Below are positions 21,623 through 63,331 of a DNA stretch of 64,000 nt, one piece after another (position 1 is the first letter of the stretch; each line of letters begins with the position of its first letter). Made by a program: the position numbers and the translations under genes. Source of the stretch: a candidate division WOR-3 bacterium. GTDB lineage: Bacteria; Hydrothermota; Tepidihabitantia; B3-TA06. The stretch lies in assembly GCA_965649265.1 (NCBI GenBank), contig CBFGKC010000003.1, positions 51,776-115,775 of the forward strand. Direction: 5' to 3'. The notes below the pieces were generated by a model. It worked only from the letters and a program-made list of their open reading frames with translations. It was not told the origin of the DNA and did not search any database.

Positions 21623-21632
21623 TCTCTTACAA

Positions 21633-21768
21633 TGTCGCGGATGATGTAAAATGACTACCGGGGGGATGCAATTATTATGTAAAATGCTTCAGTGTTTTTG
21701 AGGTTTGCTGACGTTTTGTTTTACTTTGCTAGACCGTTTTTAGGGTGCTTTTGCAGATGTTTTGTTTT
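21633..21768 (+). repeat. candidate prophage left end with transposase-binding / pac-like repeats
   Basis: Starts TGT; ATGTAAAATG at 21644 and 21677; TTTGCTGACGTTTTGTTTT(21704) vs TTTGCAGATGTTTTGTTTT(21750) 17/19 identical, partial copy at 21725. Confidence 0.55.
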
Positions 21769-24408: not shown

Positions 24409-24565
24409 TATTCGCCTCTTGCTTCTGAAAGGACTTTATAATATAATTTTAAATTGAATGGCAGGATATAATAAAAAAGATCGACGATCTTCAAAGCAAT
24501 ATTATGCCCCAAGATATTTCGATTGTTTTCAACTTTAAACCGGTCGCCCCAGTAACCCATAATAT

Positions 24566-24594
24566 ATAATAACTAAAGTCAGTTATTTTGTCAA
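24566..24594 (-). promoter_or_regulatory. sigma70 promoter of the STAND moron
   Basis: TTGACA(24594)-17-TATTAT on the minus strand. Confidence 0.55.
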
Positions 24595-24628
24595 GCCTTG
24601 TCCCCGATCACACTCGTTATTCTTTCAC

Positions 24629-25549
24629 TCACTCCGACCTCCCCTGGAAGGACTTCTCTTCACGACAGAGTTCCAAAGCTCTTTTGTTCCGCCACACGAT
24701 CTCTATCCTTTCACTTCGTTTCTTTCCTTCGGCCTTCTTTGTCAACGACGCAAAACAATAGGTTTTGAAAATGGACTTATCCCATTTTGCCTTCTCCAAT
24801 GGGGCGTATAACGGATTGTCGTATCCTGAAAGGACAACTGCACCTTTAATCTTCAATAATACTGTAATCAATTCCTTGTGGTGCTCGTCATCCATTTCGT
24901 GTCTGTAACTACCGCTCTTTCGAGTACTATGAACATACGGAGGATCCAAGTAGAAGACTGTATCTTTAGAGTCCCACTTTTGGATCACATCAAGGGCATT
25001 TCTATTTTCTATTTGAACGCAAGTCAGACGTTTATGCCACCAATATAACGCGGCCAATCTTATTCTCCAACCTTGTGTTTTCTTGCAGCGGTTACCATCT
25101 GGTGTTACTGCACGAGCCCAACTTGCCTTATGGTGATCGACACTACCGCTAATGCCTTGATTCTGAGCTACAAAAAGTGCCCAAGCTCGATCATCAAGTG
25201 AAGATTCTTGATCTTTTAAAACCTCAACAGCCTTTTCGTATTCCTTTCGTGCGTAAAGTGTCCAGACCACTCTGTGCGCCAGCTTGTCGAATCTCTTTTG
25301 ATCCTGAAGCGCTCGAAAAAGAGCCACCAGGTTTTCGTCTAGGTCATTATAGACTTCAATTGCCACTGGTTCTCTGTGAAAAAGAATGTTAGCCGCGCCT
25401 CCGTAAGGTTCGACATATACTTTTCCTTTCGGTATCAGTGGTATCAATTTATCTGCGATCAGTCCCTTACCCCCGAACCAAATTAGTGGCGCGACGGTTC
25501 GTCTTGATTTGGGTAAGGCACTAATGATGAAGTGTGTAAAGTAATGCAT
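24629..25549 (-). CDS. DNA N6-adenine methyltransferase (D12/Dam class)
   Basis: WFGGK, YVEPYGGAA, EVYND, FYLDPPY, VLSGY. Confidence 0.92.
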   Translation of the reverse strand: MHYFTHFIISALPKSRRTVAPLIWFGGKGLIADKLIPLIPKGKVYVEPYGGAANILFHREPVAIEVYNDLDENLVALFRALQDQKRFDKLAHRVVWTLYARKEYEKAVEVLKDQESSLDDRAWALFVAQNQGISGSVDHHKASWARAVTPDGNRCKKTQGWRIRLAALYWWHKRLTCVQIENRNALDVIQKWDSKDTVFYLDPPYVHSTRKSGSYRHEMDDEHHKELITVLLKIKGAVVLSGYDNPLYAPLEKAKWDKSIFKTYCFASLTKKAEGKKRSERIEIVWRNKRALELCREEKSFQGRSE

Positions 25550-25573
25550 ATCCTTCCTTTCTTCCCCCTCAGT

Positions 25574-27106
25574 TTAGCCTTTAAATACTCTCGCTATGCC
25601 CCCTGCGAATCTCTCGACTACAGAAAAAACTCTACGTTTGAGTGACTGAATTCTGATTCTTCGTCTGCCCATACCTATTCCCTCAATCTCCAATTTCATC
25701 ATACCGGCCACAAGAGCGTCTGGAAAGTGATCTTCTTTCTTCACTATGTGGCCGCCCTCGTCCCTTCTCCACCTGCGCAACTGCCTCAAAAGCATGTGCT
25801 CCGAAGGTCTGATTCCTATCTTTCCCTTTTCAAATAGGTAAGCCAGATTCGAGACGCCTTCCTCTTTGAATGTATTGAATACGACGCCCAGAGTTGCATC
25901 AGGGTCTTCCGGTTTCGAACTCCAAACGGCGAATCCTTCGTCGCGCATTCTCTTGTTCTCGAACGGATGCGAGGAGTCGCCGAATACTTCGCGCACTCCC
26001 CAAAGATCGCGAAGTTTCCTAAGCTTTTCTACTATCGGATCGATCCCGTGTCTCGAAAACATTTCAGTGTGACGCACGAATACCGTATCCCCGGCTATAC
26101 CGAGGATCACCACGGCCGTCATGCTGGCAAATCCCCAGTCGATACAGAACCAGGAGTAGTCGAACTGGACAGGAAAGCCTCGACTTCCCAAATCTATGGC
26201 TCTGTCAATGTCCGGAATCTGGATCACCAGGCCGGTGGAAGCCGGCCGCATACCCATTATTTCGACCTCGAATGTGTCCTTCGGAGAATCCTTCCACTCG
26301 CCTACGATCTCGTTGACGTCTATCCATCCGTTAGAACGCTTCGCTTTCCCCTTGCAGTATTTATCTTTGAACTCCGGCACCGGGCAGTTCTCGCATTCGT
26401 AGGCGCAGGGTTTCGCGATATCGAAGCTGTCCCAGGAGAAGAGTTCGTACCCCAATTCCTTGTGATTTTCGACGAGATCTGGGAAACTGCCTGTAAGCTT
26501 GTGATACGTGGACATGCGAAGGATGATCGCAGGTTTCGCGGTACGTACCGTATAGCGGGCGGCTTTCATGACATCATCGTCGGTTTCCGCTTCTTCGTCG
26601 ATGATGAGAAGGGCGCCGCGCTTGCCCCGTCCCAGGTGCATGCCTCTAATCGACTTCGGAGAGGCGGTCTTCGCCACGATCCGGTTGCCGGTCTTCCCGA
26701 CGAGATCGCTGTGGCGTATCCGTTCTACGGCGTCGCTCAACTGTTCTTCCTCTTCCGCAAGGTCGAGCCAGTCGGTGATGTATCCGAAGAGGGTCAAGGC
26801 CTGGGTCTCTGAGCCAGCGACTATCCCGACATCATAATCCTTGAAGAGAAAGAAAGCGGTCGCGATAATGGCAGCCCCGAAAGTTTTTCCTCCTCCTCGT
26901 GGGCCGAGCGCGACGGCTTTCAAGACTTCGGTTGAATAAAGCTGGTTGAACATCCTTTCGAACGTAGGAAAGAAATTGATGCCGCGTTCCTTGAAGAACA
27001 ACTGAGGGTCTTTCTTGTAGACGTTCTCGTGACGCTTAAGGAGACTGACTGCATCGACCAGGAGACTTCGTCTGACCTCTTGTAGATTGAGCGTTTCCTC
27101 AGGCAC
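25574..27106 (-). CDS. terL: terminase large subunit
   Basis: GPRGGGKT Walker A, LIIDEEAE Walker B, nuclease IDWG and DHFPDAL. Confidence 0.88.
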   Translation of the reverse strand: MPEETLNLQEVRRSLLVDAVSLLKRHENVYKKDPQLFFKERGINFFPTFERMFNQLYSTEVLKAVALGPRGGGKTFGAAIIATAFFLFKDYDVGIVAGSETQALTLFGYITDWLDLAEEEEQLSDAVERIRHSDLVGKTGNRIVAKTASPKSIRGMHLGRGKRGALLIIDEEAETDDDVMKAARYTVRTAKPAIILRMSTYHKLTGSFPDLVENHKELGYELFSWDSFDIAKPCAYECENCPVPEFKDKYCKGKAKRSNGWIDVNEIVGEWKDSPKDTFEVEIMGMRPASTGLVIQIPDIDRAIDLGSRGFPVQFDYSWFCIDWGFASMTAVVILGIAGDTVFVRHTEMFSRHGIDPIVEKLRKLRDLWGVREVFGDSSHPFENKRMRDEGFAVWSSKPEDPDATLGVVFNTFKEEGVSNLAYLFEKGKIGIRPSEHMLLRQLRRWRRDEGGHIVKKEDHFPDALVAGMMKLEIEGIGMGRRRIRIQSLKRRVFSVVERFAGGIARVFKG

Positions 27107-29773: not shown

Positions 29774-29832
29774 GTATTAGTGTAATTTTGCACTTGAGCG
29801 TGTCGAGGTTTTTCTGAGCGCACGGTAGTCTT

Positions 29833-30870
29833 TTATTGGCTGACAGGAATTCCATACTGTACCGCCCTTTCGAGGTACTGAGGAGGCAATCCCTGGGGAG
29901 CGAAACCCCATCCCTCGTCCGGATGCTCTGCGGGGGCTATAGGATCGGGGATCATTCCGTAATGTTCTGCGACGTATTTCGAGATCAGGATTATGCTGCA
30001 GCGACAGTTGAAGCCGTTGGGCGGCCACCATTCGTTCCATACGGGAGAGTCCAGGGGAGCCTTGAAACCGTGCATGGCTCTGTGCGCCGGTCTGGTTCGC
30101 TCGTCCCTAATCGCGTGGTACTCCGCCAGGGCTATCCGCTGCTGGTTTTGTCTCGCATAATTACGCTGCCCTTCGTTATAGGCACTCTGGACGTTCGTGC
30201 GGTAGACGGTTTCGAGATAACGAGCATTCGATTTGCTCATTCCAAGAGACGTGAATGTTTCGTCTATAGAATCTCTCCACTCCGCAAATGTGCCGCCCTT
30301 TTTAATGTGTTCAGCCATAGCTTGCTTCACGTCCTCGATCAAATCCGCTGTAGTGAGTCTCGAAATGGTGAAGGCCTGGTTCCTGTACTTAGCGTCAAGT
30401 CTTTCGTACTCATCATGGGTTAGGGGAATCTTCTTCAGGATGGCTTCGACGGCTTCCCTGGTCAATAACGGAGCCTCGTCGAAACCGGCATAATAAGAAT
30501 CGGCGAGTTCCCCGAAATCGACATTCTTCCGTACCTGATCTTCAACGTGTTTAATCGCCACGAGATTCCCCAGGAGCATGGCCTGTCCCAGGGTCTCATC
30601 GGCGTCGTCGAAGCTTATTCCGAGATCATTCCAGGAAAGCTCTCTTACTTGACCCTCGGAATCGGCTTCAAGAATCCTCTCCTTTAGCCTGTCGAATATA
30701 CTCGAAAAAGCCGAGTATCCTTCTTTCGCTGCGTTTCTTACTTTACGTTCGAGATCCTCGTCCTGGGCGTGAGCGAAAGCATCGCGGACTTTGAATCCCG
30801 GTGTATCGGGATGTGGAGAGACGAGTTCTTCGGAGTAATATGCGAAACTGCCCGGCTCCTCCTCGATCAA
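29833..30870 (-). CDS. Mu gp30/F-like minor head morphogenesis protein
   Basis: AFTIS, LETVYRTNVQSAY..G, DERTRPAH, WWPPNGFNCRC. Confidence 0.92.
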   Translation of the reverse strand: MIEEEPGSFAYYSEELVSPHPDTPGFKVRDAFAHAQDEDLERKVRNAAKEGYSAFSSIFDRLKERILEADSEGQVRELSWNDLGISFDDADETLGQAMLLGNLVAIKHVEDQVRKNVDFGELADSYYAGFDEAPLLTREAVEAILKKIPLTHDEYERLDAKYRNQAFTISRLTTADLIEDVKQAMAEHIKKGGTFAEWRDSIDETFTSLGMSKSNARYLETVYRTNVQSAYNEGQRNYARQNQQRIALAEYHAIRDERTRPAHRAMHGFKAPLDSPVWNEWWPPNGFNCRCSIILISKYVAEHYGMIPDPIAPAEHPDEGWGFAPQGLPPQYLERAVQYGIPVSQ

Positions 30871-30887: not shown

Positions 30888-32177
30888 CTACGACCTCCCG
30901 TTCCGACCAGGCGCGAAAAAACGGCCTTCCTCCCTGAATATCGGTAGCGTCGGAGGGGTGCCTTTAAGTATCTCTTCGTCTTTCTGAGCCTCAGGAATCC
31001 CGAACGTCTCGCGAACATACTTCAGGGATATAGGCAGCCCCGCATTCGAGAGAGCCACCAGGGTGTCGGCGTACTCCTTTGAGGCCTTGTTGGGCGCCGT
31101 CTTTATTATGAAAGAAGGGCAAAAATCCTCTGTAGCGGCAAGGCCGTAGTTGAAATCCACGAGCCATGAGACGACTGTGGCGTCCATGGTGCCTTGAAGG
31201 AGAGTCGCGTCAGATTCTATTATGTCCTGGCGGACCTCCTGGTGCGTTTGTGAGGCCGCGTAAGAACCCACCTGGCCCACTTCCTGGGTAAGGGTTCCGC
31301 CGAGTACGCACTTCGAGATCTCGGAGTTGCAGAATTCGAGAAGTTCCTTGAAGAAACTGCCCCTTTCTCCGACGCTTGTTTTCGCGAGTTCGGTATCTAT
31401 GGTCGTGTCGTTAGGTACGGCAGCCACAGAATCCTGCTGCAGATTAACGAGGGCGGTGACGAGTGCCTTCACATCGTCGTCCGTGTAATGAGAAGGATAC
31501 TTCCCTACGATGGAAGGGACCCCGAACTTCTCCGCGACTATCATCCAGAATGACTGACCGTGTTTCTTGAAGAACCAGGGCCAGTAAATGGAAACGAGAA
31601 GGGGAGTGGCGTAGGGGATGTCATCGAGCGGGTCGTGTTTGTGGCAGATAAACTTCCTGTCGGGCAGGTCTCTTGGCTGCCAGGTAAGACCATCTATGAG
31701 ACGGAGCACATTGTCTTCCCCGAGAGTGAACCTGTCGGGCTTGCGGGTTTTGTATTCTTTGACTCTAATCTCCTCCGGATTGACGCTCCACATGATCTCT
31801 ACTACGCTGTGGCCGTACGGAACGGCCTTCAGCAGGTGACCGAGCGTTTGCTCGAAACGAGGTATAGAATACAATGCACTTCTTACGAAATCCGCTATTT
31901 CGACCGCTCTGGGCGAGTCGTCTTTCGCTATTATCTCCCAGGTGCGGCCAGCAACTCCTGCCCGTCTGGAACGGAACACGCTCTGGATATGCGGGTCTGC
32001 CATCATCTCTTCTGCAACGTCCCAGAATCTCTTCCCAGGGTGCCGTTCCCAGAATCCAGGTATTGAAACGGGCATTTCGTTGAGTACATTGAAGAAAAGA
32101 CCGCCCAGGAAAGACCTCGTCTGAGGTGCGCTGATTTCGGCTGTGACGGGTTTGGGTTTGCTTTCTTCAGTCGGCAT
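30888..32177 (-). CDS. Mu gp29-like portal protein (DUF935)
   Basis: DPHIQS...R, YGHSVVEIMW, EKFGVP...GKY, ISKCVLGGTLT, GSYAASQTHQEVR. Confidence 0.92.
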   Translation of the reverse strand: MPTEESKPKPVTAEISAPQTRSFLGGLFFNVLNEMPVSIPGFWERHPGKRFWDVAEEMMADPHIQSVFRSRRAGVAGRTWEIIAKDDSPRAVEIADFVRSALYSIPRFEQTLGHLLKAVPYGHSVVEIMWSVNPEEIRVKEYKTRKPDRFTLGEDNVLRLIDGLTWQPRDLPDRKFICHKHDPLDDIPYATPLLVSIYWPWFFKKHGQSFWMIVAEKFGVPSIVGKYPSHYTDDDVKALVTALVNLQQDSVAAVPNDTTIDTELAKTSVGERGSFFKELLEFCNSEISKCVLGGTLTQEVGQVGSYAASQTHQEVRQDIIESDATLLQGTMDATVVSWLVDFNYGLAATEDFCPSFIIKTAPNKASKEYADTLVALSNAGLPISLKYVRETFGIPEAQKDEEILKGTPPTLPIFREEGRFFAPGRNGRS

Positions 32178-32533
32178 TACGCCTCCTTGGCTAAATGAAT
32201 TATGAACTCTTCAAGTTTTTCCGGTGCCACTCTCCATCCTTTCCGGGTTTTCCTGGCTAAACGCGAGTTCTGACACGCTCTTCGGACTGTCGCCGAAGAA
32301 CAGTTCATTATCTGGGCTATCTCGGACGGCGATTTACCCCTCGCTATGAATATGTCCTCGTTCTGGCGCCTTCGAACCTCATAAACGGGTACTCTCAACC
32401 GACCGGCAACCTTGAAAAGCGAGATCTTACCTTCTTCTCTGAGCTTGATGATTGACTTAGGCTTTATGCCTAGAAGCGAAGCCGCTTCCGCGAGAGGATA
32501 CCCTGCGGTTCTGATGGCGCCGCCCAGGTTCAT
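32177..32533 (-). CDS. tandem HTH (excisionase/MerR-like) DNA-binding protein, possible late activator
   Basis: Two modules, EAASLLGI...GRLRV and EIAQIMNCS...GWRV; sits at the early/late boundary. Confidence 0.65.
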   Translation of the reverse strand: MNLGGAIRTAGYPLAEAASLLGIKPKSIIKLREEGKISLFKVAGRLRVPVYEVRRRQNEDIFIARGKSPSEIAQIMNCSSATVRRACQNSRLARKTRKGWRVAPEKLEEFIIHLAKEA

Positions 32534-32534
32534 T

Positions 32535-32675
32535 TCAATCGTCCTTCTTTCCGCACAGAAAGTCTATGTCTTTCTTAAGAATCACATCGACTTTTATCCA
32601 ACCCATGCGGATCGACAGAATGACCACACCGACAGTAACCAAAAGTGTAATTATCATTATCCAGTCAATTACCAA
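32535..32675 (-). CDS. 46-aa single-TM protein (not in ORF track)
   Basis: GGAGG + TTG; MVIDWIMIITLLVTVGVVILSIRMGW...KKDD; fills the gap between neighbours. Confidence 0.5.
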   Translation of the reverse strand: MVIDWIMIITLLVTVGVVILSIRMGWIKVDVILKKDIDFLCGKKDD

Positions 32676-33291
32676 TCTTGCCTCCAATCGGATACTTTTC
32701 TAACAATTTAGGTTGTACTCTGAAATCGGGGTCGGCGGTTTGCAGAAGTTGATCTTTCGACCATCCCCGAATTCTCGACCAGGTGCGACCGCCGTATCGT
32801 CCCGGCCATACGTCTCGAGGTGAACTATTCGTTATGAAGACTCCGGTTATCCCGCGTCCGGCCCACGCGTCCACGAGGTGAAAGAATACCTCCACGAAGT
32901 GGTCGGAGCAGACCTCTACGCCGAGATCATCCACGACGATCCACCGGGCAGTCTTCAGGATTTCGAGTTCTTCCTCCTTCTTTTGCGTGAGGTATCCTCC
33001 CCTTCCGATGAGAAGGGAAAGGTCGGTCGCCTTAAAGTATGCGCCGGGTTCATATCCGGCGGCAATGTTTCGCGCCAGTCTGTAAGCTGCGGATAGGCTC
33101 TTACCTGACCCCGTTTCACCCTGAACTATGGACAATTGCTTAGGTCGAATCTCATTAAGGAAGAGATTCGTGGTAGGGGTAAGACGGACTTCACGGTCAA
33201 GGTACTCCTTGCCGAAACGTGCGCGTATAAACTTCCGCGCATTAGGAAGCCACATAGCCTCTCTCATCTCCGCCCTGCTGAACTCCCTCAT
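32665..33291 (-). CDS. DnaC/IstB-like AAA+ ATPase
   Basis: GETGSGKS, IVVDDLGVE, FITNS, YGGRTWSRI. Confidence 0.85.
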   Translation of the reverse strand: MREFSRAEMREAMWLPNARKFIRARFGKEYLDREVRLTPTTNLFLNEIRPKQLSIVQGETGSGKSLSAAYRLARNIAAGYEPGAYFKATDLSLLIGRGGYLTQKKEEELEILKTARWIVVDDLGVEVCSDHFVEVFFHLVDAWAGRGITGVFITNSSPRDVWPGRYGGRTWSRIRGWSKDQLLQTADPDFRVQPKLLEKYPIGGKIGN

Positions 33292-33938
33292 AAGGAAGTC
33301 CTTCCGGTTTCGACAGGCTTCTCGACAGGACTCTGCTCTCTCGAATCACCTGGTGCTTTCCTGTCCTGGACTTCGAGCATATCGTTTATGTATTTGAAGA
33401 ACTGCTTTACGAAAGCCGCAAGGTGCCAGCGCTGCGCCAGGAATGAACGAAGGTCGTATTTATCCATTGTGAAAGCCATACCCCGCATGATTCTGACGAT
33501 CCCTTGCAGCTGCTCGTCCGGAGAATAGTTCTTTAGTTTTGGATGGAGTGACGCCTCTCTAAGCATCGCCTTAGCTGCCCTGGCTATGCCACCGTATTCA
33601 TGCAGGGGGTTTTCCCTGTCGCAGGGGTCGAAATGATGGGTTTCCTTGATTATCTCCCGATACTCGTGGATCAGTTCATAAACGCGGGGGTCTGCTTCTT
33701 TCTTCTTCTTGCCTGTGATGCCAAGTCTCGCTTTAGCCGATATGGTCAACCTGATTCGGCCGTTCGTTTGTTCTACCCAGCCCGTCCTTTGGAGATCGTC
33801 AACTGAAACGTGCTGTTGTATCTCTTTTCTGGACATCCCCGCGAGTACCTTGAGGAGGGCGACGGTCAAGCCGTCGGGAAGTCTTTCCCCCAGGGCGTCC
33901 GTTGCCTTAAGCAAGGATCGGAGTTCTGTTATCGTCAT
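33288..33938 (-). CDS. hypothetical protein, possible replication initiator
   Basis: N-terminal winged-helix-like segment; overlaps the DnaC-like gene as O/P-type pairs do (positional inference). Confidence 0.45.
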   Translation of the reverse strand: MTITELRSLLKATDALGERLPDGLTVALLKVLAGMSRKEIQQHVSVDDLQRTGWVEQTNGRIRLTISAKARLGITGKKKKEADPRVYELIHEYREIIKETHHFDPCDRENPLHEYGGIARAAKAMLREASLHPKLKNYSPDEQLQGIVRIMRGMAFTMDKYDLRSFLAQRWHLAAFVKQFFKYINDMLEVQDRKAPGDSREQSPVEKPVETGRTSL

Positions 33939-34507
33939 AACATTGCCCCGGAATGAAGTCTGTGGACTGACTCATCCCGACCGTTTGGGTCGATATATGC
34001 TAGTTCGAGGCTACCAAATATATCTAATTCGTTAAAGGCAGGGAAGCGGGTGTCAGCTTGCCAGACCCCGGACCAGGGCTTGAGTTGTTTTCCAAGTTTC
34101 CTGGCTCTATTGCATAACTCGATATTCAGTTCTTTTGGTCCGGTTTTGATGAGATAAACAATTCCCCAGGTGTCCGGCGTGGCGCGATTAATGTCTATCT
34201 GGAAGCCGTCCACAACAGCCGTGATGATCTGAGGACCCTTGCTGGCTATCGTTCCACCGACATCTTTGATTAACCTTGGGATATCGAACCAGAGATTGCG
34301 GTTAGGGAAAGGTTCGAGTTCGCCGTCCTTGTTCTTAAGCCATTCGCCTTTGGGGATCACGACTAAGTCGACGTCGTGAACGAGAGGCCTCCCTCTTCTT
34401 ATCGATCCGGCTATCTCTATCCTGTCGCAAGCGACTCCGAGAGCGTCAACCATATTCTCGCCTATGATTCGGGCCTCCAGTAGAGGGAGTTGTTCGTGCT
34501 TTGCCAT
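33935..34507 (-). CDS. minimal family X DNA polymerase (palm + thumb)
   Basis: IAGSIRRG..VHDVDLVV, QIDI, KTGP...N, E.DIF..L.L.YIDP..R; 190 aa. Confidence 0.88.
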   Translation of the reverse strand: MAKHEQLPLLEARIIGENMVDALGVACDRIEIAGSIRRGRPLVHDVDLVVIPKGEWLKNKDGELEPFPNRNLWFDIPRLIKDVGGTIASKGPQIITAVVDGFQIDINRATPDTWGIVYLIKTGPKELNIELCNRARKLGKQLKPWSGVWQADTRFPAFNELDIFGSLELAYIDPNGRDESVHRLHSGAML

Positions 34508-34509
34508 AT

Positions 34510-34713
34510 CTACCTCGTTGCTCCATAGAGTCTTCTAGTCGGCCAATCCTGTCTCCTGACCCAGGTCAAAAACCTGATTTTCGAGCAGAGTTCCTTGTCC
34601 GACAAGTCGATCATCGTCGTGACACCGATGCGCTTTTTGAACAACTCGCGAGAAATACCGAGTTCTTTCAACTCGGCGTGGAGCTTTCGCATCAGGCGTG
34701 TTCTTTTAATCAT
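34510..34713 (-). CDS. GemA/Mu gp16-like protein (short)
   Basis: RLMRKLHAELKELGIS...GVTTMIDLSDKEL resembles the DUF1018 N-terminus. Confidence 0.65.
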   Translation of the reverse strand: MIKRTRLMRKLHAELKELGISRELFKKRIGVTTMIDLSDKELCSKIRFLTWVRRQDWPTRRLYGATR

Positions 34714-35606
34714 CCCTTTACTCCGGCCACGACATTCTTTGTGGTCGATTTCTGGGCTGTCGTATAGATCGAGTGGCCTCGGTTGTGATAGAGTTCCATG
34801 ACATTACGGCCGACGGTATTGATGGTCGAAGGCAGTCGGTGGAGTCCCCTTGAAGTCAAATATTCGTCGGAAAGCTTCGCCTTGATCTCGGCCACGAAAT
34901 CCTGGGTAAAAGTTCCACCGTCGCGTGAAGCCTGGAACTGAATGAAGCGTTCGACTTCGTCCGCTCCGAGTCCGGCCAGCTTGAAGCTCGACCTTCTTGC
35001 GTAATCCGGGAATTCCGGTTTGCCTTCTTCCACGATGTAATCGGGTTTGTAGAAAGCGTTCTTATCCGAAAGGTCGGCGGCAATCACTACACCTGGGCCG
35101 TACTTTTTGTTTTCTATATTGATTCGGGAAGCTGTATAAAGAAGTTCCCAGATATGGCGGGGTTGTGAAAGAGCTTCGTCGAGTATTATGAGGACTTTCT
35201 GGCCGCTTTCGTAGAGTTTATAAAGCAGATCCCTGAGCTGGAGTCTGCGTCCCTGCTTTGTCACTCCTTTTTTATCCACCCAATCCCCCCAGCGCCATGC
35301 CGGTTTTTCACCGAGTCCTATTATGATGTCCTTCCACAGCAACCCGCGAAGGTTGGTTCGCATCGTTCTCGGGTACGAACCCAACTCTATGACTATCATC
35401 TTTGAGTCTTTCTTCGCCGCGAGCCGTAGGGCATTCAGTGCAAGCGTAGCTCCCCCGCCGATAGGTGAATCGAGAACCTGAAACTTGTGTTCGTTCGCGG
35501 CATCCGTACCCTTGCGGATCACGAAATCCACATCCTTTGATTTGAAAAATGTACCCGGTTCAAGCTTTGCGACCGGCGTAAATGCGTTCAGTTCATTGAG
35601 TGCCAT
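34710..35606 (-). CDS. MuB/ExeA-like AAA protein with degenerate Walker A
   Basis: SPIGGGAT at the Walker A position, VLIILDEA Walker B, RR..F.L..L..EV..FI, PSTIN. Confidence 0.65.
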   Translation of the reverse strand: MALNELNAFTPVAKLEPGTFFKSKDVDFVIRKGTDAANEHKFQVLDSPIGGGATLALNALRLAAKKDSKMIVIELGSYPRTMRTNLRGLLWKDIIIGLGEKPAWRWGDWVDKKGVTKQGRRLQLRDLLYKLYESGQKVLIILDEALSQPRHIWELLYTASRINIENKKYGPGVVIAADLSDKNAFYKPDYIVEEGKPEFPDYARRSSFKLAGLGADEVERFIQFQASRDGGTFTQDFVAEIKAKLSDEYLTSRGLHRLPSTINTVGRNVMELYHNRGHSIYTTAQKSTTKNVVAGVKG

Positions 35607-35683
35607 TTTATACTCCCGAACGCCTGTACGCCGCCGGACTGAATCTCCTCGAACAATACCGGCGGCGACAGACGGTTTTCATT

Positions 35684-36028
35684 TTATTTCTTTCCTGTGG
35701 TGACGTTGTTAGTAACTTTGGGTCCGGCTTTATCAGCCAGGATAGAAGTCGTTTTCCAAAGTCCTGCCGCCACACCGCCGGAGAAGAAACCGTCCAGCAG
35801 CGCGACGACTATCGGAATGACCGTTTGGATCATTCCGAGCTTGAATGCGAGAAACTCCAGACCATAGACCAGTGCGCCCAGGGCAGTACCCACGATCAGC
35901 GCAAGAAGGGTATTGATCCACCCTTCGGTCTTGAGCCATTGCTTGAGTTTCGTTACGATAGTGACGACGATGACCGATCCGAGGATCGTCACGCCGAACA
36001 GATTAAGGGTCAGTTCTGCGCCCCACAT
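35684..36028 (-). CDS. holin-like 3-TM protein
   Basis: VTKLKQW...LLALIVG..LG...GFFSGGVAAGLWK pattern; basic C-terminal tail. Confidence 0.55.
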   Translation of the reverse strand: MWGAELTLNLFGVTILGSVIVVTIVTKLKQWLKTEGWINTLLALIVGTALGALVYGLEFLAFKLGMIQTVIPIVVALLDGFFSGGVAAGLWKTTSILADKAGPKVTNNVTTGKK

Positions 36029-36270
36029 TGGGCCTCCTTTTTGATGAGTTTTATCTCGAACTCCTTTTGAGTTCCTCTTGATCCGAGTTCCAGAATCTCT
36101 CTCCTTGAGATTCCGAGTTCTAAAGCTTCTTCAAGGGTCAATTCCAGACCCACGCCCTGCCCTTTGAAGGTTACGATCACCGTTGGAATGTCCGGTTCCT
36201 CTATACCGAGGATCGAATGCGCGACCTTTCTGGGAATCTTCTTCGTTATTGCGCGTACTATAGCTTTCAT
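36010..36270 (-). CDS. hypothetical phage protein
   Basis: Coupled ORF in the early operon; RBS present. Confidence 0.55.
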   Translation of the reverse strand: MKAIVRAITKKIPRKVAHSILGIEEPDIPTVIVTFKGQGVGLELTLEEALELGISRREILELGSRGTQKEFEIKLIKKEAQCGAQN

Positions 36271-36689
36271 TTTGCTTTCCCTCCTGGTGTGTCACCGTTT
36301 TCCAAACCCATGCTCCTTAGGATATCTGAAAGCGCGTCCCCTTTTTCGGAAGGAGTATCCGTGAGTCTGTCGGGATGGTTTGAAGGAGCGGAGTCCTTGA
36401 CATCTTCTATCTTCAGCTGGTTCCTTCGAGCCTTCATGAACAACTCGTAAACGTTCTTGCTGCATATCTCACAGAGCACGTCTCCCTCGACTTTGAGTAG
36501 CTCCCTCAGTTTCATTGCCAGGGACTGCGAGAACTCCTTCTTGTGTTTTTCGAGGATGGCAGCCACCGCTTCCTTCAGGAGCCTTCCGGCGAATTTCAAA
36601 GGGACGTAATTGATGCCAAGCCTTTGAAGTTCATCCACGCTACGCTGACAGTGACCTGCGCATCTGGGAATCCCCTTATCGTTCCTCAT
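36267..36689 (-). CDS. hypothetical protein with CxxxC...CxxC motif
   Basis: CAGHC and CEIC; overlaps the transposase stop. Confidence 0.55.
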   Translation of the reverse strand: MRNDKGIPRCAGHCQRSVDELQRLGINYVPLKFAGRLLKEAVAAILEKHKKEFSQSLAMKLRELLKVEGDVLCEICSKNVYELFMKARRNQLKIEDVKDSAPSNHPDRLTDTPSEKGDALSDILRSMGLENGDTPGGKAK

Positions 36690-38298
36690 TATTGCTCCTT
36701 AAAATTTCTTCTATGCTAACCTTGGACACCTCACCAAGCGCATCGAGAATGCGCTCAGTTTGTCTTTTGATTTCGATACGTGAATGTGGAACCGAACAGA
36801 AGGGATCGACTAATTCTCGTCTAATCTGTTCAGGCAAATCTCCAAGAGGACCGAGAGCCTCTGCTAAAAGGTCGCGTTGTGCATTCTCGTGCATGAGTTC
36901 CAGTCCCGGACCTTCCACCTTCCGGCCACTGGTCGACGGAGGCGGTGTCCAATCCATATCTGCGGGTATTTTCGAATCAAATACTCTTTCGACCTCGTCG
37001 AGTGTGAAAGGTTCAACGGTTTTTGATCTCTCCGATACCGACCTTCTCATCCTTTCGCTGTTTTCGTATACCGGAACCGGTCGGTTCTCACGAGCTTCTT
37101 CGAGCAGCAGTCTTTTTGCCGGGGAATATCTGGTTCCAGGTACGTAAATGTACAGTCTATCATCGAGTTTTATCAGTTCTACTTTCGTTCCGTCCTTGAT
37201 CAATTCCGGCGCGAAATAGTCCTTATTCTGATACGTCAAATAACCTCGTCTTACGGTTGCGTAGAGTTTCTTGAAGGCGAGTTCATCGTAATTGGAAGGA
37301 AACCATAGGTTCGGAACGAAATTCCTCCAGTATTCGAGTCGGGTTCCCTTCTCCGCAGAGTGGAGTTTTAGGCTTCGTGTCTTGCAGTAATCGGTCAACA
37401 GTCCGTTTACTTTGTCCAGGGAAAGTTGAACGCCCCTGGCCATACCGTTCAATATCACCGCCTCCAACTCCTGTTTTATGATTCTTATCCCTCCTTCAAC
37501 CTTGCCTTTCTTCCAGGGGCTGGAAGGTGGTGCAGGTATCTTCGTCACACCGATTTTTTCGAGCAAGTTCGAGATCTCTTCCGTCTTACCCCAGGAAGCC
37601 TGGTCGACGTAGATAGATTCGGGTACACCCCAGAATGGATATTCTGGTTTCGATTCCCATGCTGACCGCATGAACTTGATAACTAGCGAAGTGCTTTCAC
37701 CGCGAGACAAGTAATATCTCGCCCATATCATGCCCGACGCATCGTCCACGACGAGTCCTATCCACACACGCAGCCTGTCCTCGTTAGGCCGGTTCTCGTA
37801 GACATAGTTCGAGCGTATCTGCACCGAATCCTCGCCTGCGAAACGCAGAACGTCCGAAACCGAGAAGTCTATCTGATGAAGTCCGTTCGGTACGCTCCGT
37901 CTGAATCGTTTCGTGACCCGGTGTTTCTTTCCTATCCGATAGGTACGCATGAATAAAGAGAGTTCCCTTGATCGTATCTCACCCTTGGGAAGTCTTCCGG
38001 CGGCTTCGAGGGTTTCGATGAGATATGAGAGGGCTATCTTGGTGCTGGCGGAGGTGCTCATTATGGATTCCACATAAGCGGCGGCTTCTATTAGCAAAGT
38101 CCGTTTCTCTTCGGTGAACTCGGCCTGCCTGGGTCGCTCTATGAATCCTCTGTACAATGCATTCCGCAAACTCCCCGGACTGCAATTCGCGCGCTCCGCC
38201 CATTCGGAGAGAACGGTCTGCTTGCGGCAGTGTGAAGCAAGCCTGTATTCCTCCGTAAATTTCACGAATGACTCCGGGCTGAGCGCGATGGGTCTCAT
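36676..38298 (-). CDS. Mu-like DDE transposase (rve core)
   Basis: PNGLHQIDFS (D1), VVDDASG, PFWGVPESIYVDQ (D2), PWKKGKVEG (E). Confidence 0.9.
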   Translation of the reverse strand: MRPIALSPESFVKFTEEYRLASHCRKQTVLSEWAERANCSPGSLRNALYRGFIERPRQAEFTEEKRTLLIEAAAYVESIMSTSASTKIALSYLIETLEAAGRLPKGEIRSRELSLFMRTYRIGKKHRVTKRFRRSVPNGLHQIDFSVSDVLRFAGEDSVQIRSNYVYENRPNEDRLRVWIGLVVDDASGMIWARYYLSRGESTSLVIKFMRSAWESKPEYPFWGVPESIYVDQASWGKTEEISNLLEKIGVTKIPAPPSSPWKKGKVEGGIRIIKQELEAVILNGMARGVQLSLDKVNGLLTDYCKTRSLKLHSAEKGTRLEYWRNFVPNLWFPSNYDELAFKKLYATVRRGYLTYQNKDYFAPELIKDGTKVELIKLDDRLYIYVPGTRYSPAKRLLLEEARENRPVPVYENSERMRRSVSERSKTVEPFTLDEVERVFDSKIPADMDWTPPPSTSGRKVEGPGLELMHENAQRDLLAEALGPLGDLPEQIRRELVDPFCSVPHSRIEIKRQTERILDALGEVSKVSIEEILRSNNEER

Positions 38299-39539
38299 TT
38301 CTTGTTCTTCTGGGTCTTGAAGGTTCCCTTAGGAAGTGTCATGAGGTCGTCTGTGGTTCCGTCGCGGCTTTCGGATATTGCTTCGGTTCCCGAGGGATTG
38401 TAGGTTGCAACGGTCGCCGTATTATGCAAGGCATAAAGAAGGCTCTTGACCTTCTCGTAGGATTCCTCTATCTTAGGAGAGGACTCGATTATCTTAACCG
38501 CGTCTTCCGGCCACAGCTTCACCTGATTGACGAATGCCGTAAGGTCATTTTCGAGTCTGTTATGTAAGGCGATGAATGAAGAATCTATAAGTGCTTCTTT
38601 TTCTGCAAGCGTCTTACGGGTGTTTTCAGGGTCGTCGAAATCATTAAAGGGATCATCCTTTTTAGCCGGTGGCAATGCTTTCTTTTCGACTGGTTTGTCG
38701 GCTGTAAATTTTGAGAAGAGCCTCGGAAGTTCTTCGACACCTTTTTTAAGTATCTGGTCGATGGTGATCTCCTCTCCACCAACCGATGTGAATCGTCCGG
38801 TATCGAGGAATCGCGCGAATTGTTCGGGTGCCTTTAGAAATTCTCTGAGCTTTCGTTGAGGAATCCTTCCTAATCCAATTTCTTCTGCTCGTTGAAGAAC
38901 ATTGTCTTTCCCGTACTGTTTGATGAAAGCCTGCCCAAGCCTTTTACGGTAGGACACCTTCATATCACTCCACCCAAACATAACCTGGGCCGCTACACGG
39001 GGTGATTCAAATTCATCTATTACCCAGGGCGCATGTTCCCCTTCACCTAAATAAAGTGCAGCAGCAACACATAATTGTATTTCAGCGAGCGATTTGTTCT
39101 TTACCGCGTCTTCCGCATAACTCAGGGCGGCTTCTCTGTCCTGTGCCATTTCGGAAGAAATCAATATCTCAACTTGTGGCTGCCCTTTTTCCAGTTCGAC
39201 CTTAACCGTAGAACCGATCTTTAAGGTAGTAGGATTCTTTGCCGGAATATTTTTCTTCTCATTCTTGACTTCTTTCTTCACCTTCAGCTCCTTTCCGTGA
39301 ATGGCGATACATTTATCTCTATTATCGTTGAACAAGAGCCTGAGACTCGGCTCGATTTTTTCGAAACAATCCGCACATTCGGCGGGCGTAACGTTTCCCG
39401 AACGTTTGGCGCAAAAGAAGGCCTTAGATAGTTGTAATTCATCCGCTTTGGCCTTCTGGTCGGAAGCGCTCTCCTGAATGACGGAGATTGCTTCCTTGCA
39501 TTTGTGATCCCATTCTTCCGGGGTCATTTCTTCCTCCAT
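38295..39539 (-). CDS. hypothetical early protein with N-terminal Cys4 module
   Basis: Long ORF coupled to the transposase; start 39539 or 39527 (GGAGG); FFCAKR...C..C...C. Confidence 0.65.
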   Translation of the reverse strand: MEEEMTPEEWDHKCKEAISVIQESASDQKAKADELQLSKAFFCAKRSGNVTPAECADCFEKIEPSLRLLFNDNRDKCIAIHGKELKVKKEVKNEKKNIPAKNPTTLKIGSTVKVELEKGQPQVEILISSEMAQDREAALSYAEDAVKNKSLAEIQLCVAAALYLGEGEHAPWVIDEFESPRVAAQVMFGWSDMKVSYRKRLGQAFIKQYGKDNVLQRAEEIGLGRIPQRKLREFLKAPEQFARFLDTGRFTSVGGEEITIDQILKKGVEELPRLFSKFTADKPVEKKALPPAKKDDPFNDFDDPENTRKTLAEKEALIDSSFIALHNRLENDLTAFVNQVKLWPEDAVKIIESSPKIEESYEKVKSLLYALHNTATVATYNPSGTEAISESRDGTTDDLMTLPKGTFKTQKNKK

Positions 39540-39547
39540 TACTGATG

Positions 39548-39700
39548 ATCGTTCCTCCCTTAAGATTGGCGGCGCGAGTTGCGCAACCCGCGCCGCTTTC
39601 ATCGGTAAGGGAGGAGGTTACGTTGAGTTTGATAGGGCGACCGCCGCCGAGCGTTCGGAGCTGAGGAATGAGTCCGTGCCCGGCGGCGGCATTCTTTCCT
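39548..39700 (-). ncRNA. candidate structured RNA with anti-Shine-Dalgarno loops
   Basis: Three consecutive hairpins; loops CAUUCCUC and CCUCCUCCC; GC-rich third stem. Confidence 0.4.
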
Positions 39701-39722
39701 TCGTTGGCTACGAGGCTAAAGC

Positions 39723-40313
39723 TCATCGCACACCTTCAATATTCAATTCCACAGGCAGCCCCAATTTCGCTAGTTTCTCCGGTGACCCGTAAAAATGCCG
39801 AGCGCATGCTACCTTACGTCTATGGATCTCTGTCTCTCGCGAATGCAAACTGAACATATTTGCTTCGTTTTCCTCGTCGGTTAGAGGAACGTAATAGCCA
39901 AGAGGAAGCTTATTCGTACTCGCAACGTAATAGTCCTTTTCGAGCAGCATGTCCCGAATACTTTTTCTCAGAGAATCGTCCGACAGGTGATATGATCCGA
40001 AGCCTTCCGTCGAAAGTCTTTTCCTTATCTCGTGTGAAGTCATCGCATTCCGCATCCCTCTCGCGTGTACCCACAAGAGATTCCAGATCGCTTTTTCCAG
40101 GACAGTCAAAGGTTCCTTTTCGAAAGCAGGACGCGCGATCACTCGATAAGCCGCGATACATTCAGCATGAGATTTGTTAAAAGCTTCCTTACCTTGAAGC
40201 CAACAAGCCTGGCATTTCGAGGGCGTAACCCCTGCGTTCCTTTTGGCGCAAAAGAACGACCTCGAAACATTCGCCACCGACTTATTCGCGGCTTCTATCC
40301 CCAGCTGTTCCAC
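39723..40313 (-). CDS. Cys4 module + winged-helix phage protein
   Basis: FFCAKR...CQAC...C; NAMTSHEI...LRKSIRDM...GYY. Confidence 0.65.
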   Translation of the reverse strand: MEQLGIEAANKSVANVSRSFFCAKRNAGVTPSKCQACWLQGKEAFNKSHAECIAAYRVIARPAFEKEPLTVLEKAIWNLLWVHARGMRNAMTSHEIRKRLSTEGFGSYHLSDDSLRKSIRDMLLEKDYYVASTNKLPLGYYVPLTDEENEANMFSLHSRETEIHRRKVACARHFYGSPEKLAKLGLPVELNIEGVR

Positions 40314-40314
40314 T

Positions 40315-40767
40315 TCATTCCTTTACGGTACGGATCACGCAAACAGATTTTATGTTCCTTGAAGCGCCAAGCTTTTTGAGATCGGCGTCACCGAGTCTCT
40401 TAAGAGCGAGAACATCTATGGAATGCTTTACGGCGAATCCGTCCGGATAACGTTCGTCTAGGAGACGCAGCGTCTTAGCCTGATCAGTGATCACGAGTTC
40501 GTCGGTATCCTTGAAGAGCACGGTTCCGGCGTCGAATTTCTTGGACTTGCCGCCGAACTCCGCGAAATGATTGCGGCAAAACTTTTCTATGGCCGTCTTG
40601 CGGCCTTCTATCTCGGCCTGCCAGGCTTCCGTTTCCTCTTCGTATTTTTCCTGCGCCACCGCGATCGCGGCGTCGGCCTTCTGACGTTTCATTTCTACGA
40701 GTCTTTCGAGTTTACGAATCTCGACGAGCTCGGCGTTAACGTCTGGGAATCCTCTGATTCTTTTCAC
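40315..40767 (-). CDS. gam: Mu Gam-like host-nuclease inhibitor (DNA end-binding)
   Basis: Coiled coil then FC..H..EF..KSKKFDAGTVLFK; 150 aa; AAGGAG + GTG. Confidence 0.82.
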   Translation of the reverse strand: MKRIRGFPDVNAELVEIRKLERLVEMKRQKADAAIAVAQEKYEEETEAWQAEIEGRKTAIEKFCRNHFAEFGGKSKKFDAGTVLFKDTDELVITDQAKTLRLLDERYPDGFAVKHSIDVLALKRLGDADLKKLGASRNIKSVCVIRTVKE

Positions 40768-41142: not shown

Positions 41143-41586
41143 TCACTTCTTTCTCCTTTTTGGGAATGCCTCGTCTACTCGCAGTCCTAAAACACGGGCT
41201 ATGGCCTTCTGGAGTTTCTCGTTGGTTCTTTCACCTCTGATCGTTCTTTGAATTGAATCGGGTGTTATTTTGATACCAAACTGCTCATAGACGAGGTCTG
41301 CAATTCTTACGAAACTGATTTCCTTTCCCCCTTTTTCGAGCGGTTGAATCATCCTCTGTCTGATCACAAGGGTATTCGCTTCTCTTTTATAACCTTTCGG
41401 GTATTTCTTGACAGTTACTGTTTTTACAGTATTATCCGATGTCGGTTTAACGACATTTTCAATATGGGAGCTGAAATGAGAAACATCCTTGGAGCTTTTG
41501 CGCGTCTTTTTCGTTGCGCGCTCGCGACCGAGGGTGAGTTTAGAGGAGGCTGATTGAACTCTGGCTCTGTTAGGTGTCGTGTTCAC
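41143..41586 (-). CDS. Ner/Cro-like DNA-binding protein
   Basis: C-terminal IADLV...SIQRTIRG...LQKAIARVLG..V.E.FP; divergent from the repressor; true start uncertain. Confidence 0.65.
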   Translation of the reverse strand: MNTTPNRARVQSASSKLTLGRERATKKTRKSSKDVSHFSSHIENVVKPTSDNTVKTVTVKKYPKGYKREANTLVIRQRMIQPLEKGGKEISFVRIADLVYEQFGIKITPDSIQRTIRGERTNEKLQKAIARVLGLRVDEAFPKRRKK

Positions 41587-41660: not shown

Positions 41661-42635
41661 ATGAGCACGATTGGGGATAGGATAAAAGAAGTACGCAAAT
41701 TGCGGGGAATATCAGCAAAAAAGTTAGGCCAATTGTTAGGTGTTTCTCAATCGGTCATCGCAAAATGGGAAACAGGCGCAAGAAAAAACTTACGTTCAGA
41801 TTCCGTCAATAGGCTTGCAGGAGCATTAAAAGTTAACACCCAATGGCTTTTAACTGGTGAAGGGCAAATGGAGAAATCCGAAAATAATAGCTCCGATTTA
41901 CACCGCGGTGTAAATTCGGGTTCGTATTTACGCGACTTAGATGTAGAATCCTTGGATTCTAAGGCTGTAGGGAATCGAATCCGGGAGGCAAGGGAAAGTT
42001 ATCCAAATATTACATACGGAGTCGATCCTGTGGGTATTTCTCAAGCCAAGTTGGCGGACAATATCAAGGTCGACAGCAGTCTAATATCAAAGTGGGAATC
42101 GGGCGAACGCGTTCCAGGGAAAGAGCAGTTCGAGCCTCTCGCGAACGCGCTGGGTGTCAAGCTTCGGTGGCTCTTAAGTGGTGAAGGTAAAAAGGACAGG
42201 TTTCCCGTGCCTCCCTCGAAGCAGTTACAACCTGCTTCGGGTGAAATGCGCGAGGTGCCTATTTTGGGATACGTGCCCGGCAGTGATCCTTTCGCGCCGG
42301 GACATGAACCAGAAGGGAGCATCATGGTGCCACTCGAAGTATCGGAGCATCCTGGGCTGTTTGCCCTTTACATCAGGGGGGATTCAATGTCCCCTAAAAT
42401 AGAAGACGGTGATCTCGTGTTCATAGAACCCGTTGAAGGCGAACTTCGGACGGGTTCAATCGTAGTAGCCCTGATTCAGGGTGAAACCACATGCAAGATT
42501 TTTAAGCGAACCGGTTCGGGAAAACCCATGCTGGTTCCTCTCAATCCCGTAGTCGAACCTATTTACTTAACCGACGACGGAGATAGAATATTAGGGGTCG
42601 TCGCAGGAAGTTACCGGGTGTTCAAACCCCTTTGA
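41661..42635 (+). CDS. CI-like repressor with two XRE HTH domains and an S24 peptidase domain
   Basis: Two IG.RI...WE.G...LA.AL.V...WLL.GEG units; GDSM (Ser) and TCK (Lys). Confidence 0.9.
   Translation: MSTIGDRIKEVRKLRGISAKKLGQLLGVSQSVIAKWETGARKNLRSDSVNRLAGALKVNTQWLLTGEGQMEKSENNSSDLHRGVNSGSYLRDLDVESLDSKAVGNRIREARESYPNITYGVDPVGISQAKLADNIKVDSSLISKWESGERVPGKEQFEPLANALGVKLRWLLSGEGKKDRFPVPPSKQLQPASGEMREVPILGYVPGSDPFAPGHEPEGSIMVPLEVSEHPGLFALYIRGDSMSPKIEDGDLVFIEPVEGELRTGSIVVALIQGETTCKIFKRTGSGKPMLVPLNPVVEPIYLTDDGDRILGVVAGSYRVFKPL
41896..41915. repeat. perfect 20-bp palindrome inside the repressor gene
   Basis: ATTTACACCGCGGTGTAAAT. Confidence 0.8.
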
Positions 42636-42686
42636 AATAGCAGTTTCGATTAAGACCTAAAGTACCACCGCGCGCTCAAAAAAACC

Positions 42687-42732
42687 TCGACACGCGCAAG
42701 CATACCAGCACAATTTAAGCGTGAACGTTCAC
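42687..42732 (+). promoter_or_regulatory. candidate late promoter with adjacent palindrome
   Basis: TCGACA-16-CACAAT followed by GTGAACGTTCAC (42721-42732). Confidence 0.4.
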
Positions 42733-61146: not shown

Positions 61147-61236
61147 CGTTCAGGAGACCTTTATGCGCGATTTAGGTCGAAATAAACATTTGACAAATCC
61201 GGAATTTGAGTACAATATACTCATAAGGAGGAAGCG

Positions 61237-61833: not shown

Positions 61834-61853
61834 GAAGGGGTTAAGGAGGAGCG

Positions 61854-62642: not shown

Positions 62643-62694
62643 AGAATTATGTTTGTAGTCTTGCCTTGAAGATGGGACACAAAAGGAGTTTGAA

Positions 62695-63312: not shown

Positions 63313-63331
63313 TTGTTCGAGAAAGGGAACT

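Follow-up and report, generated by a model that had tools for sequence, protein, structure and literature searches.

A minimal family-X DNA polymerase and other apparent add-on genes in the early operon of a Mu-like prophage from a candidate division WOR-3 bacterium

Do the early genes of a transposable prophage that appears to encode its own DNA polymerase form one pathway, or are they separate acquisitions? The question is raised by positions 32665-40767, minus strand, of a 64,000-nucleotide stretch of contig CBFGKC010000003.1 from a candidate division WOR-3 bacterium, referred to here as the window. This segment encodes Gam, a DDE transposase, a MuB-like protein, a minimal family-X DNA polymerase (PolX) and a DnaC/IstB-like ATPase, which the original prediction, made from the letters of the DNA, had joined into a self-contained kit for transposition, repair and replication. 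The reading somewhat favored here is that a Mu-like prophage, intact in appearance and belonging to a small uncultured clade, has its early operon in this region, and that this operon is modular, with PolX as a probable gap-filling accessory and the DnaC-like protein as a putative helicase loader added on in one lineage. Each of the activities proposed earlier is plausible on its own, and the genes look like separate add-ons, not like one co-evolved system.

The early operon is compact and runs on the minus strand from position 41586 down past this segment, inside a prophage-like block of raised G+C content that extends from ~25.5 kb to ~62 kb of the window. A gene for a 147-amino-acid protein is followed by Gam, proteins of 196 and 435 amino acids (p196 and p435), the transposase, three small open reading frames (ORFs) and the MuB-like protein, and then by a 67-amino-acid protein (p67), PolX, a 216-amino-acid protein (p216), the DnaC/IstB-like ATPase, a helix-turn-helix (HTH) protein, the portal protein and a MuF-like head protein. 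Further down the same strand are genes for the endolysin and the large terminase. The last five early genes (MuB-like, p67, PolX, p216 and DnaC-like) overlap or almost abut. A 4-nucleotide overlap joins the MuB-like gene to p67, a 2-nucleotide gap separates p67 from PolX, and the PolX/p216 and p216/DnaC-like junctions are 4-nucleotide overlaps each, so the tight coupling of these genes described in the original prediction stands.

PolX (33935..34507, minus strand) is predicted to be a stand-alone minimal family-X DNA polymerase of 190 amino acids, made up of palm and thumb. The PolX thumb model PF14791 matches at 7.4e-7 (29.4 bits against a cut-off of 25, and 31.7 bits in the genome search), and the protein aligns to the palm and thumb of T. 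thermophilus PolX (3au2, residues 179-316, 2.2e-5). Because its alignment to the 571-position PolX model is confined to positions 149-316, the palm and thumb part, with the 8-kDa and fingers (helix-hairpin-helix) domains lacking, the protein is termed minimal. Across 20 homologs G34, S35, R37, R38 and D45 never vary, and at least 90% retain D47 and D105. As judged from these residues the active site is complete; with the GS motif and three aspartates conserved and the thumb above its cut-off, the earlier description of a minimal PolX with intact carboxylates is borne out. A PDB sequence search with the window PolX gave no match to the Pol X of African swine fever virus (ASFV) at E ≤ 1. A tblastn search of a phage collection found a PolX match in one of 50,697 records, a 116-kb Escherichia phage, and no link of PolX to Mu-like or transposable phages was found in the literature searched.

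Close relatives of this phage were taken from metagenome contigs as four loci (L165-L168), of which L168 gives the same E-values as L165 for the genes they have in common and is therefore counted with it as one phage. The order ner-gam-p196-p435-transposase-p140-p114-MuB-like-p67-PolX-p216-(DnaC-like)-p118-portal-MuF is kept in L166 and L167, and L165 keeps the same order from p196, where its contig starts, to the start of the portal gene. PolX is found in all three relatives with enough flanking sequence, at 48-49% identity to the window protein in L166 and L167 and at 63% in L165. The DnaC-like gene is present in two of the four related phages, namely the window phage and L165/L168, and was scored as absent from the 20-kb loci of L166 and L167. 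In these two, the HTH gene comes directly after p216, and PolX has other small ORFs at its flanks. By gene order, then, PolX, the lysine-less MuB-like protein (discussed below), p67 and p216 travel together in the clade, and the DnaC-like gene has been inserted between p216 and the HTH/portal genes in one lineage only.

The minimal PolX family as a whole is large. A word-indexed search found 29 proteins of 159-317 amino acids, and PolX relatives are encoded on 173 IMG/VR stretches and on 339 stretches in species genomes, archaea and bacteria of many phyla being represented. A distant set was formed from the best 80 of the 173 IMG/VR stretches and the best 80 of the 339 genomic stretches; neighbors within 6 kb were clustered, cluster representatives were named by Pfam, and all loci were searched with hidden Markov models (HMMs) of the clusters. 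The cluster HMMs were needed to detect the Mu genes; single-sequence phmmer missed most of them: with 16 window proteins against the 160 loci, it recovered only PolX, the portal protein (5 loci) and MuF (7 loci). The family model phrog_310, which matched 12 of 50 viral records (of the 80), was likewise less sensitive than the cluster HMMs.

Mu hallmarks, defined as MuB, a large upstream transposase-like protein, Gam or a weakly GemA-like protein, occur in 35 of the 160 distant PolX loci (22 of 80 viral and 13 of 80 genomic), and a tyrosine integrase occurs in 32, with both labels in 2. Where PolX and MuB are found together they share a strand in all 32 loci, and PolX lies downstream of MuB in 28 of these. 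On a FastTree phylogeny of 162 PolX rows, from which L168, L002, L003 and rows with fewer than 120 matched residues were left out, the Mu/integrase label changes 9 times; shuffled labels change 22.2 times on average, and 0 of 500 shuffles gave so low a count, with the 94 unlabeled rows uncounted and relatives sharing labels. The window clade forms one group on this tree. PolX lineages track phage type, and PolX is, on this evidence, an old accessory of many Mu-like phages. Its standing as a recurrent, co-oriented resident of Mu-like early regions is thus upheld by the distant loci.

The same loci tell otherwise of the DnaC-like gene. Its HMM gave 2 weak hits (E ~2e-4) over the 160 distant PolX loci, and phrog_50 gave 1 marginal P-loop hit, 30 positions long, over the 22 Mu-like PolX virus records. 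Being found in only some of the close relatives and nearly absent from the distant PolX loci, the DnaC-like gene is regarded as a lineage-specific accessory. The co-occurrence among transposable phages that the original prediction offered as its own check therefore holds for PolX, which recurs in Mu-like early regions, and fails for the DnaC-like ATPase; with that gene missing from L166 and L167 as well, a single co-inherited kit is not supported.

The DnaC-like protein itself (32665..33291, minus strand) is probably a 208-amino-acid AAA+ ATPase of the DnaC/IstB family, recognized by phrog_50 at 9.5e-15. NCBIfam models PRK06835 (2.5e-8) and IstB helper (1.9e-6) match under their cut-offs, and the best match among solved structures is Aquifex DnaC (3ecc, 1.9e-4). 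PF01695 matches 24 of the 32 aligned members (31 homologs and the window protein). The Walker A, Walker B and sensor residues G58, G63, K64, D121, D122, N155 and R173 are invariant in the 32 sequences, which, with the phrog_50 match, agrees with the intact ATPase described earlier. The family is sparse, with 57 representatives at E ≤ 1e-3 among 1.84 billion. A complex prediction for the C-terminal domain of the host DnaB (residues 190-509, 10-row alignment) with the DnaC-like protein (32-row alignment) scored 0.00, a value that weighs neither way on binding.

The MuB-like protein (34710..35606, minus strand, 298 amino acids) is placed in the MuB family of AAA+ proteins by hhalign, in which a four-sequence profile matches the canonical MuB cluster of the distant loci (AAA_22/TniB/Phage-MuB_C by Pfam) with 95.7% probability and an E-value of 8.7e-9. 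The window protein has no Pfam match of its own, and its relatives carry precomputed PF13401. The alignment sets S47-P-I-G-G-G-A53-T54 on the Walker A motif G-x-x-x-x-G-K-T and L-D-E-A on Walker B. At the lysine position stands Ala or Gly in seven of seven clade members, L165 included, whereas 30 of 30 canonical MuB proteins of the distant loci have the lysine. The lysine, as aligned, is lost throughout the clade, and the original prediction was correct in describing a MuB-like protein that lacks it. Walker B reads D143-E144 in the window; D143 is invariant in the seven members, and the Glu is found in two, including the window protein, and replaced by Asn in five, at a position that is also variable in canonical MuB.

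Only 6 proteins make up the MuB-like family in a set of 5.8 billion proteins. An AlphaFold2 model of moderate quality (predicted local distance difference test, pLDDT, 66.6) matches ORC/Cdc6-type AAA+ proteins and the MuB filament 8xvb (8.3e-5) in Foldseek, with low template-modeling scores of 0.3-0.4. More than 60 invariant columns in the family point to purifying selection and not to a decaying gene. The lysine is missing whether or not the DnaC-like gene is present, so its loss is not simply compensated by the DnaC-like protein. MuB requires ATP for its roles in target capture and immunity (PMC3894238). A conserved homolog without the lysine would allow one to probe how much of MuB's role needs ATP.

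Gam (40315..40767, minus strand), a Ku-like DNA-end-binding protein, is matched by PF07352 at 5.2e-16 (59.4 bits against a cut-off of 28.3) and by phrog_491 at 1.8e-13, which confirms its presence. The transposase (36676..38298, minus strand) is a 540-amino-acid protein of the rve-type DDE class that is matched by phrog_310 at 1.1e-20; its triad D144, D232 and E268 is invariant in four of four related transposases, in keeping with the intact enzyme predicted earlier. Other models score under their cut-offs, among them rve of Pfam (1.6e-4) and the NCBIfam models for IS21 (4.9e-11) and IS481 (3.4e-10), of which the IS21 model covers nearly the whole length of the protein. The best transposase matches among the 50,697 phage records have 23-29% identity.

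The host provides a particular background for these genes. Its assembly, 96% complete, encodes DciA and was found to contain no DnaC-type loader, no Ku and no ATP-dependent ligase of its own. The sole PF01695 match over cut-off is a 451-amino-acid ORF, which we take from its size alone to be DnaA. The prophage PolX is the only PolX-thumb match in the genome. In the phylum sample 208 of 272 genomes have PolX, mostly as ORFs of 570-630 amino acids (the window's own genome is counted, with its prophage PolX only), and the full-length PolX1 type is present in most genomes of the host phylum; none of 10 sister genomes of the host family has PolX. Gam is found in 12 of the 272 genomes: the window's own, 9 of 10 others of the host family and 2 of 261 elsewhere. 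In the two Gam-bearing genomes outside the family, the PolX matches are full-length and lie on other contigs.

A second relative of the prophage was noted on contig C1 at ~51500-55650 (L188:11513-15634). It has repressor-like, Gam, short p435-like, p114-like, HTH and portal genes (the last matching the window's portal at 7.5e-154) and lacks the transposase, MuB-like protein, PolX, p216 and DnaC-like ATPase. In 10 of 10 other genomes of the host family the block is present in synteny, with DNA identity of 66-74%; it has the appearance of a Mu-derived cluster that is passed on vertically and may have been domesticated.

Gene content, conservation and co-occurrence are what can be read off these loci, and from them we infer functional roles. 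PolX, presumably made alongside the transposition proteins, would fill short gaps, either the target-site gaps at new insertions or other nicks and gaps in phage DNA, and such filling would matter most in a host family without a PolX of its own. Gam would protect ends. The lysine-less MuB-like protein may act as an adaptor for the transposase that is independent of ATP hydrolysis, or else as a variant nucleotide binder. The DnaC-like ATPase would most likely recruit the DnaB helicase of its host, which relies on DciA, and ligation would be left to the host.

How far this modular reading can be taken depends on what else could explain the same genes. PolX might be a general phage DNA-repair or counter-defense enzyme with no special tie to transposition, for instance one that patches damaged or nicked phage DNA by a base-excision type of repair, as in ASFV, and its place in the Mu early region might merely be a site at which accessory genes accumulate. 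This is a real possibility, though a minority one, given that the family is found in phages of the integrase type and of other types as well as in the genomes of archaea and bacteria from many phyla, with relatives on the 173 IMG/VR and 339 genomic stretches, and that PolX stands beside only one of 13 Gam loci in the phylum sample. However, PolX is co-oriented with MuB and downstream of it in 28 of 32 loci, and its lineages cluster by phage type, which suggests a long residence with the transposition module and argues against random hitch-hiking; a repair role stays compatible with both observations. By comparison, the single pathway of the original prediction, in which Gam, PolX, the DnaC/IstB-like ATPase and degenerate MuB have co-evolved and together protect ends, fill gaps and load helicase or capture targets, with the intact ATPase replacing a dead MuB, now seems very unlikely. 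All of its genes are co-oriented and five are translationally coupled, the host assembly lacks a PolX, Ku and DnaC of its own, and the transposase scores on the IS21 family model, IstB being the natural partner of IS21. Yet L166 and L167 dispense with the DnaC-like gene while keeping the lysine-less MuB-like protein, p67, PolX and p216, and beyond the close relatives the gene gave just 2 weak hits in 160 distant loci and a single marginal one in 22 Mu-like PolX records. PolX is moreover accompanied by a canonical, lysine-bearing MuB in 30 of 30 distant Mu-like loci, so it does not depend on a degenerate one. Since the phage encodes no ligase, the proposed finishing pathway resembling non-homologous end joining (NHEJ) is an analogy only, and the lack of a ligase counts against the joint pathway as well.

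Two further explanations concern single proteins. The DnaC/IstB-like ATPase could be an IstB-type protein that captures targets and activates an IS21-like transposase, and not a helicase loader. The IS21 model extends over nearly the whole transposase (4.9e-11, under cut-off), the IstB helper model recognizes the ATPase (1.9e-6, likewise under cut-off), and PF01695, which 24 of the 32 aligned members match, spans both IstB and DnaC. Nevertheless, the ATPase gene lies ~3.4 kb downstream of the transposase, past PolX and p216, it is missing from two related phages with the same transposase, its closest solved structure is DnaC and not IstB, and its PHROG family is named as a helicase loader, so that this role is decidedly unlikely. 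It is hardly credible that the 190-amino-acid protein is a nucleotidyltransferase of Pol-beta fold that acts on some other substrate, whether by untemplated tailing, by nucleotidylation of proteins or by making a signaling nucleotide. It does lack the 8-kDa and fingers domains, and the residue before the conserved T122-G123 is not aromatic, at what we presume, from the YFTG motif of Pol beta, to be the steric-gate position. These features are outweighed by the PolX-specific thumb above its Pfam cut-off, by an alignment to T. thermophilus PolX that spans palm and thumb, and by the triphosphate motif G34-S35-x-R37-R38, which is invariant like D45, with D47 and D105 kept in at least 90% of the 20 homologs.

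Several points weigh against the modular reading with a gap-filling PolX itself. We infer both the polymerase activity of PolX and its link to transposition. In the phylum sample the window's Gam locus is the one of 13 that adjoins a minimal PolX, so most Gam-bearing elements there do without it. Neither a Mu nor an integrase label was assigned to 95 of the 160 distant PolX loci, and no transposase hit was obtained for some PolX records that have terminal repeats or are highly complete. Since the family also stands beside integrases (32 of 160 loci), its role cannot be specific to transposition. The 22% of loci with Mu hallmarks is a biased figure, because the loci were picked for similarity to this PolX, and it comes without a background rate of Mu-like contigs. 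The alignment built for the window transposase had no hhalign match to the two transposase clusters of the distant loci, the window DnaC-like protein has no match to PF01695 at E ≤ 0.001, and the prophage ends and a target-site duplication were not found in the window.

A bolder reading would hold that this clade has rebuilt Mu-type transposition for a host family without PolX, Ku or a DnaC-type loader, with the MuB-like protein, no longer able to use ATP in the canonical manner, as a fixed adaptor, PolX, produced with Gam from one early operon, closing the target-site gaps and, in one sub-lineage, a helicase loader for the replicative step. It is speculative and unlikely; if true, no transposable element before this one would have been known to carry a polymerase of its own for gap repair.

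Among the other genes of the coupled group, p67 (34510..34713, minus strand) is conserved in four of four relatives and has no match in Pfam at E ≤ 0.1, in PHROG at E ≤ 0.01 or in NCBIfam. The p216 protein (33288..33938, minus strand), conserved in 5 loci, is modeled by AlphaFold2 (pLDDT 71.6) as an N-terminal winged helix with a helical domain. Foldseek against PDB and BFVD gave no match for it at E ≤ 0.001, and the best VIA-align Z score of 6.5 covers the winged helix only; a DnaD or replication-initiator type was considered and dropped, as DnaD domains reached Z 4.5-5.3, the level of noise. The original prediction had named p67 as GemA. Neither p67 nor p216 matches PF06252 at E ≤ 0.1, and hhalign against the weakly GemA-like cluster of the distant loci gave 1.5% and 0.9%, respectively, a weak comparison given that this cluster is itself under the Pfam cut-off. 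An identity as GemA is thus not confirmed for either.

At the head of the operon, the 147-amino-acid protein (41143..41586, minus strand) is possibly a small regulator, with a weak match to the transcriptional-repressor family phrog_769 (4.7e-4). Homologs occupy the same position in L166 and L167, and in Mu this is the place of Ner. Divergent from the operon is a CI/LexA-type repressor (41661..42635, plus strand) with two HTH domains and an S24 peptidase (HTH_3 6.3e-24, Peptidase_S24 3.8e-21). The plus-strand block that follows is presumed, from its translations and from what is generally known of Mu-like phages, to hold protease, capsid and tail genes. Between Gam and the transposase are two clade-specific proteins. 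The first, p196 (39723..40313, minus strand), is matched by phrog_2113 (2.5e-10) and conserved in L165, L166 and L167. The second, p435 (38295..39602, minus strand), overlaps the transposase start by 4 nucleotides and is conserved in L165-L167; neither a Pfam family above cut-off nor a PDB sequence matches it, and its family comprises 10 proteins, its own included, in the 5.8-billion-protein set. The two proteins share a short N-terminal motif, and phmmer with p196 also matches p435 homologs (E ~1e-3).

Downstream of the transposase lie p140 (36267..36689, minus strand, 140 amino acids), which is conserved in L165-L167 and has no family match in Pfam, PHROG or NCBIfam; an 86-amino-acid ORF (36010..36270, minus strand) with a homolog in L167 only and no family match; and p114 (35684..36028, minus strand, 114 amino acids), hydrophobic by eye, with a weak match to the holin-like phrog_1299 (1.6e-4) and with conserved counterparts both in L165-L167 and in the second element of contig C1. 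The 118-amino-acid HTH protein p118 (32177..32533, minus strand; HTH_17 5e-15, phrog_6401 1.2e-6), a regulator or small-terminase-like protein, is encoded just upstream of the portal gene (30888..32177, minus strand; phrog_113 3.8e-103), which is followed by the gene for the MuF-like minor head protein (29833..30870, minus strand; phrog_220 2.2e-48).

An inverted repeat has its 43-nucleotide left arm (29793..29835) at the head of the leftward late block and its right arm (42658..42700) at the head of the rightward protease/capsid/tail block. Its arms are 86% complementary and enclose a 12.8-kb segment with the early genes, portal and MuF; L166 has a 68-nucleotide pair at the same two positions. 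The repeat is a candidate for a repeated late promoter or activator site, or for a recombination site. As to the outer limits of the prophage, no terminal inverted repeats were found between the candidate end regions 21600-25650 and 61100-64000, and no empty site came from the sister genomes, which share only a host gene at ~20342-21617. Just past this conserved gene, a stretch of ~93 nucleotides (21632-21724) is found again, with 92% identity, on a different contig of this genome and in a sister genus-level genome. Genes for an 879-amino-acid NB-ARC/STAND-type NTPase (21769-24408, G+C 0.40) and a D12-class adenine methyltransferase (24629-25549) are found at the presumed left edge, and the NTPase region has no counterpart in the sister genomes. 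Near the presumed right edge is a gene for a non-specific DNA/RNA endonuclease (61854-62642, PF01223 5.6e-49).

Set against known transposable phages, the prophage resembles Mu and the Mu-like phages of the BcepMu and B3/D3112 types in its DDE transposase, its MuB-family AAA+ partner, its Gam, its Mu-type portal and MuF head protein, and a repressor divergent from the early operon. It differs from them in a MuB homolog without the Walker A lysine, in having Gam placed upstream of the transposase, and in late genes that are divided between two blocks facing outward; Mu-type ends and a target duplication were not located in the window. It also stands apart from known Mu-like phages in its PolX, given the single match among the phage-collection records, and in a transposase whose best matches there are 23-29% identical. 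Repair of the short gaps that flank new Mu insertions has been ascribed to the host. Many uncultured Mu-like phages have a polymerase gene in their early operon, and such a gene would offer a genetic handle on this gap repair.

Among virus-encoded polymerases, ASFV Pol X is a protein of 174 amino acids that consists of palm and thumb only and is regarded as a short-gap repair enzyme. The window PolX may be likened to it as a stand-alone, virus-encoded palm and thumb, but its closest solved relative is T. thermophilus PolX, and host, context and lineage are unrelated. With the bacterial PolX proteins covered by a 2026 survey it shares the family-X palm and thumb. As given in the available part of that survey, PolX1 has 8-kDa and PHP domains, and PolX2 lacks both and has an extra C-terminal helical domain (PMC12926913). 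The same part does not link PolX to prophages or describe a PolX type of 190 amino acids (PMC12926913), and the window protein differs from both types as they appear there, having neither the 8-kDa and PHP domains nor the C-terminal helical domain.

The two AAA+ proteins likewise depart from their counterparts. Like MuB, TniB and TnsC, the MuB-like protein has an initiator-clade AAA+ fold and is encoded downstream of the transposase; unlike them, it has Ala or Gly in place of the lysine in all seven clade members and the Walker B Glu in two of the seven, and three small genes separate it from the transposase. The DnaC-like ATPase shares with DnaC/DnaI and the IstB of IS21 the AAA+ core, Walker A and B motifs, a sensor Asn and a short N-terminal extension, but it is only 208 amino acids long, falls under all curated cut-offs and is encoded in a transposable phage, where a helicase loader is unexpected. 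DnaC-type loaders have been proposed to spread from mobile elements, and a putative loader of this type in a phage of a DciA-type host fits that idea.

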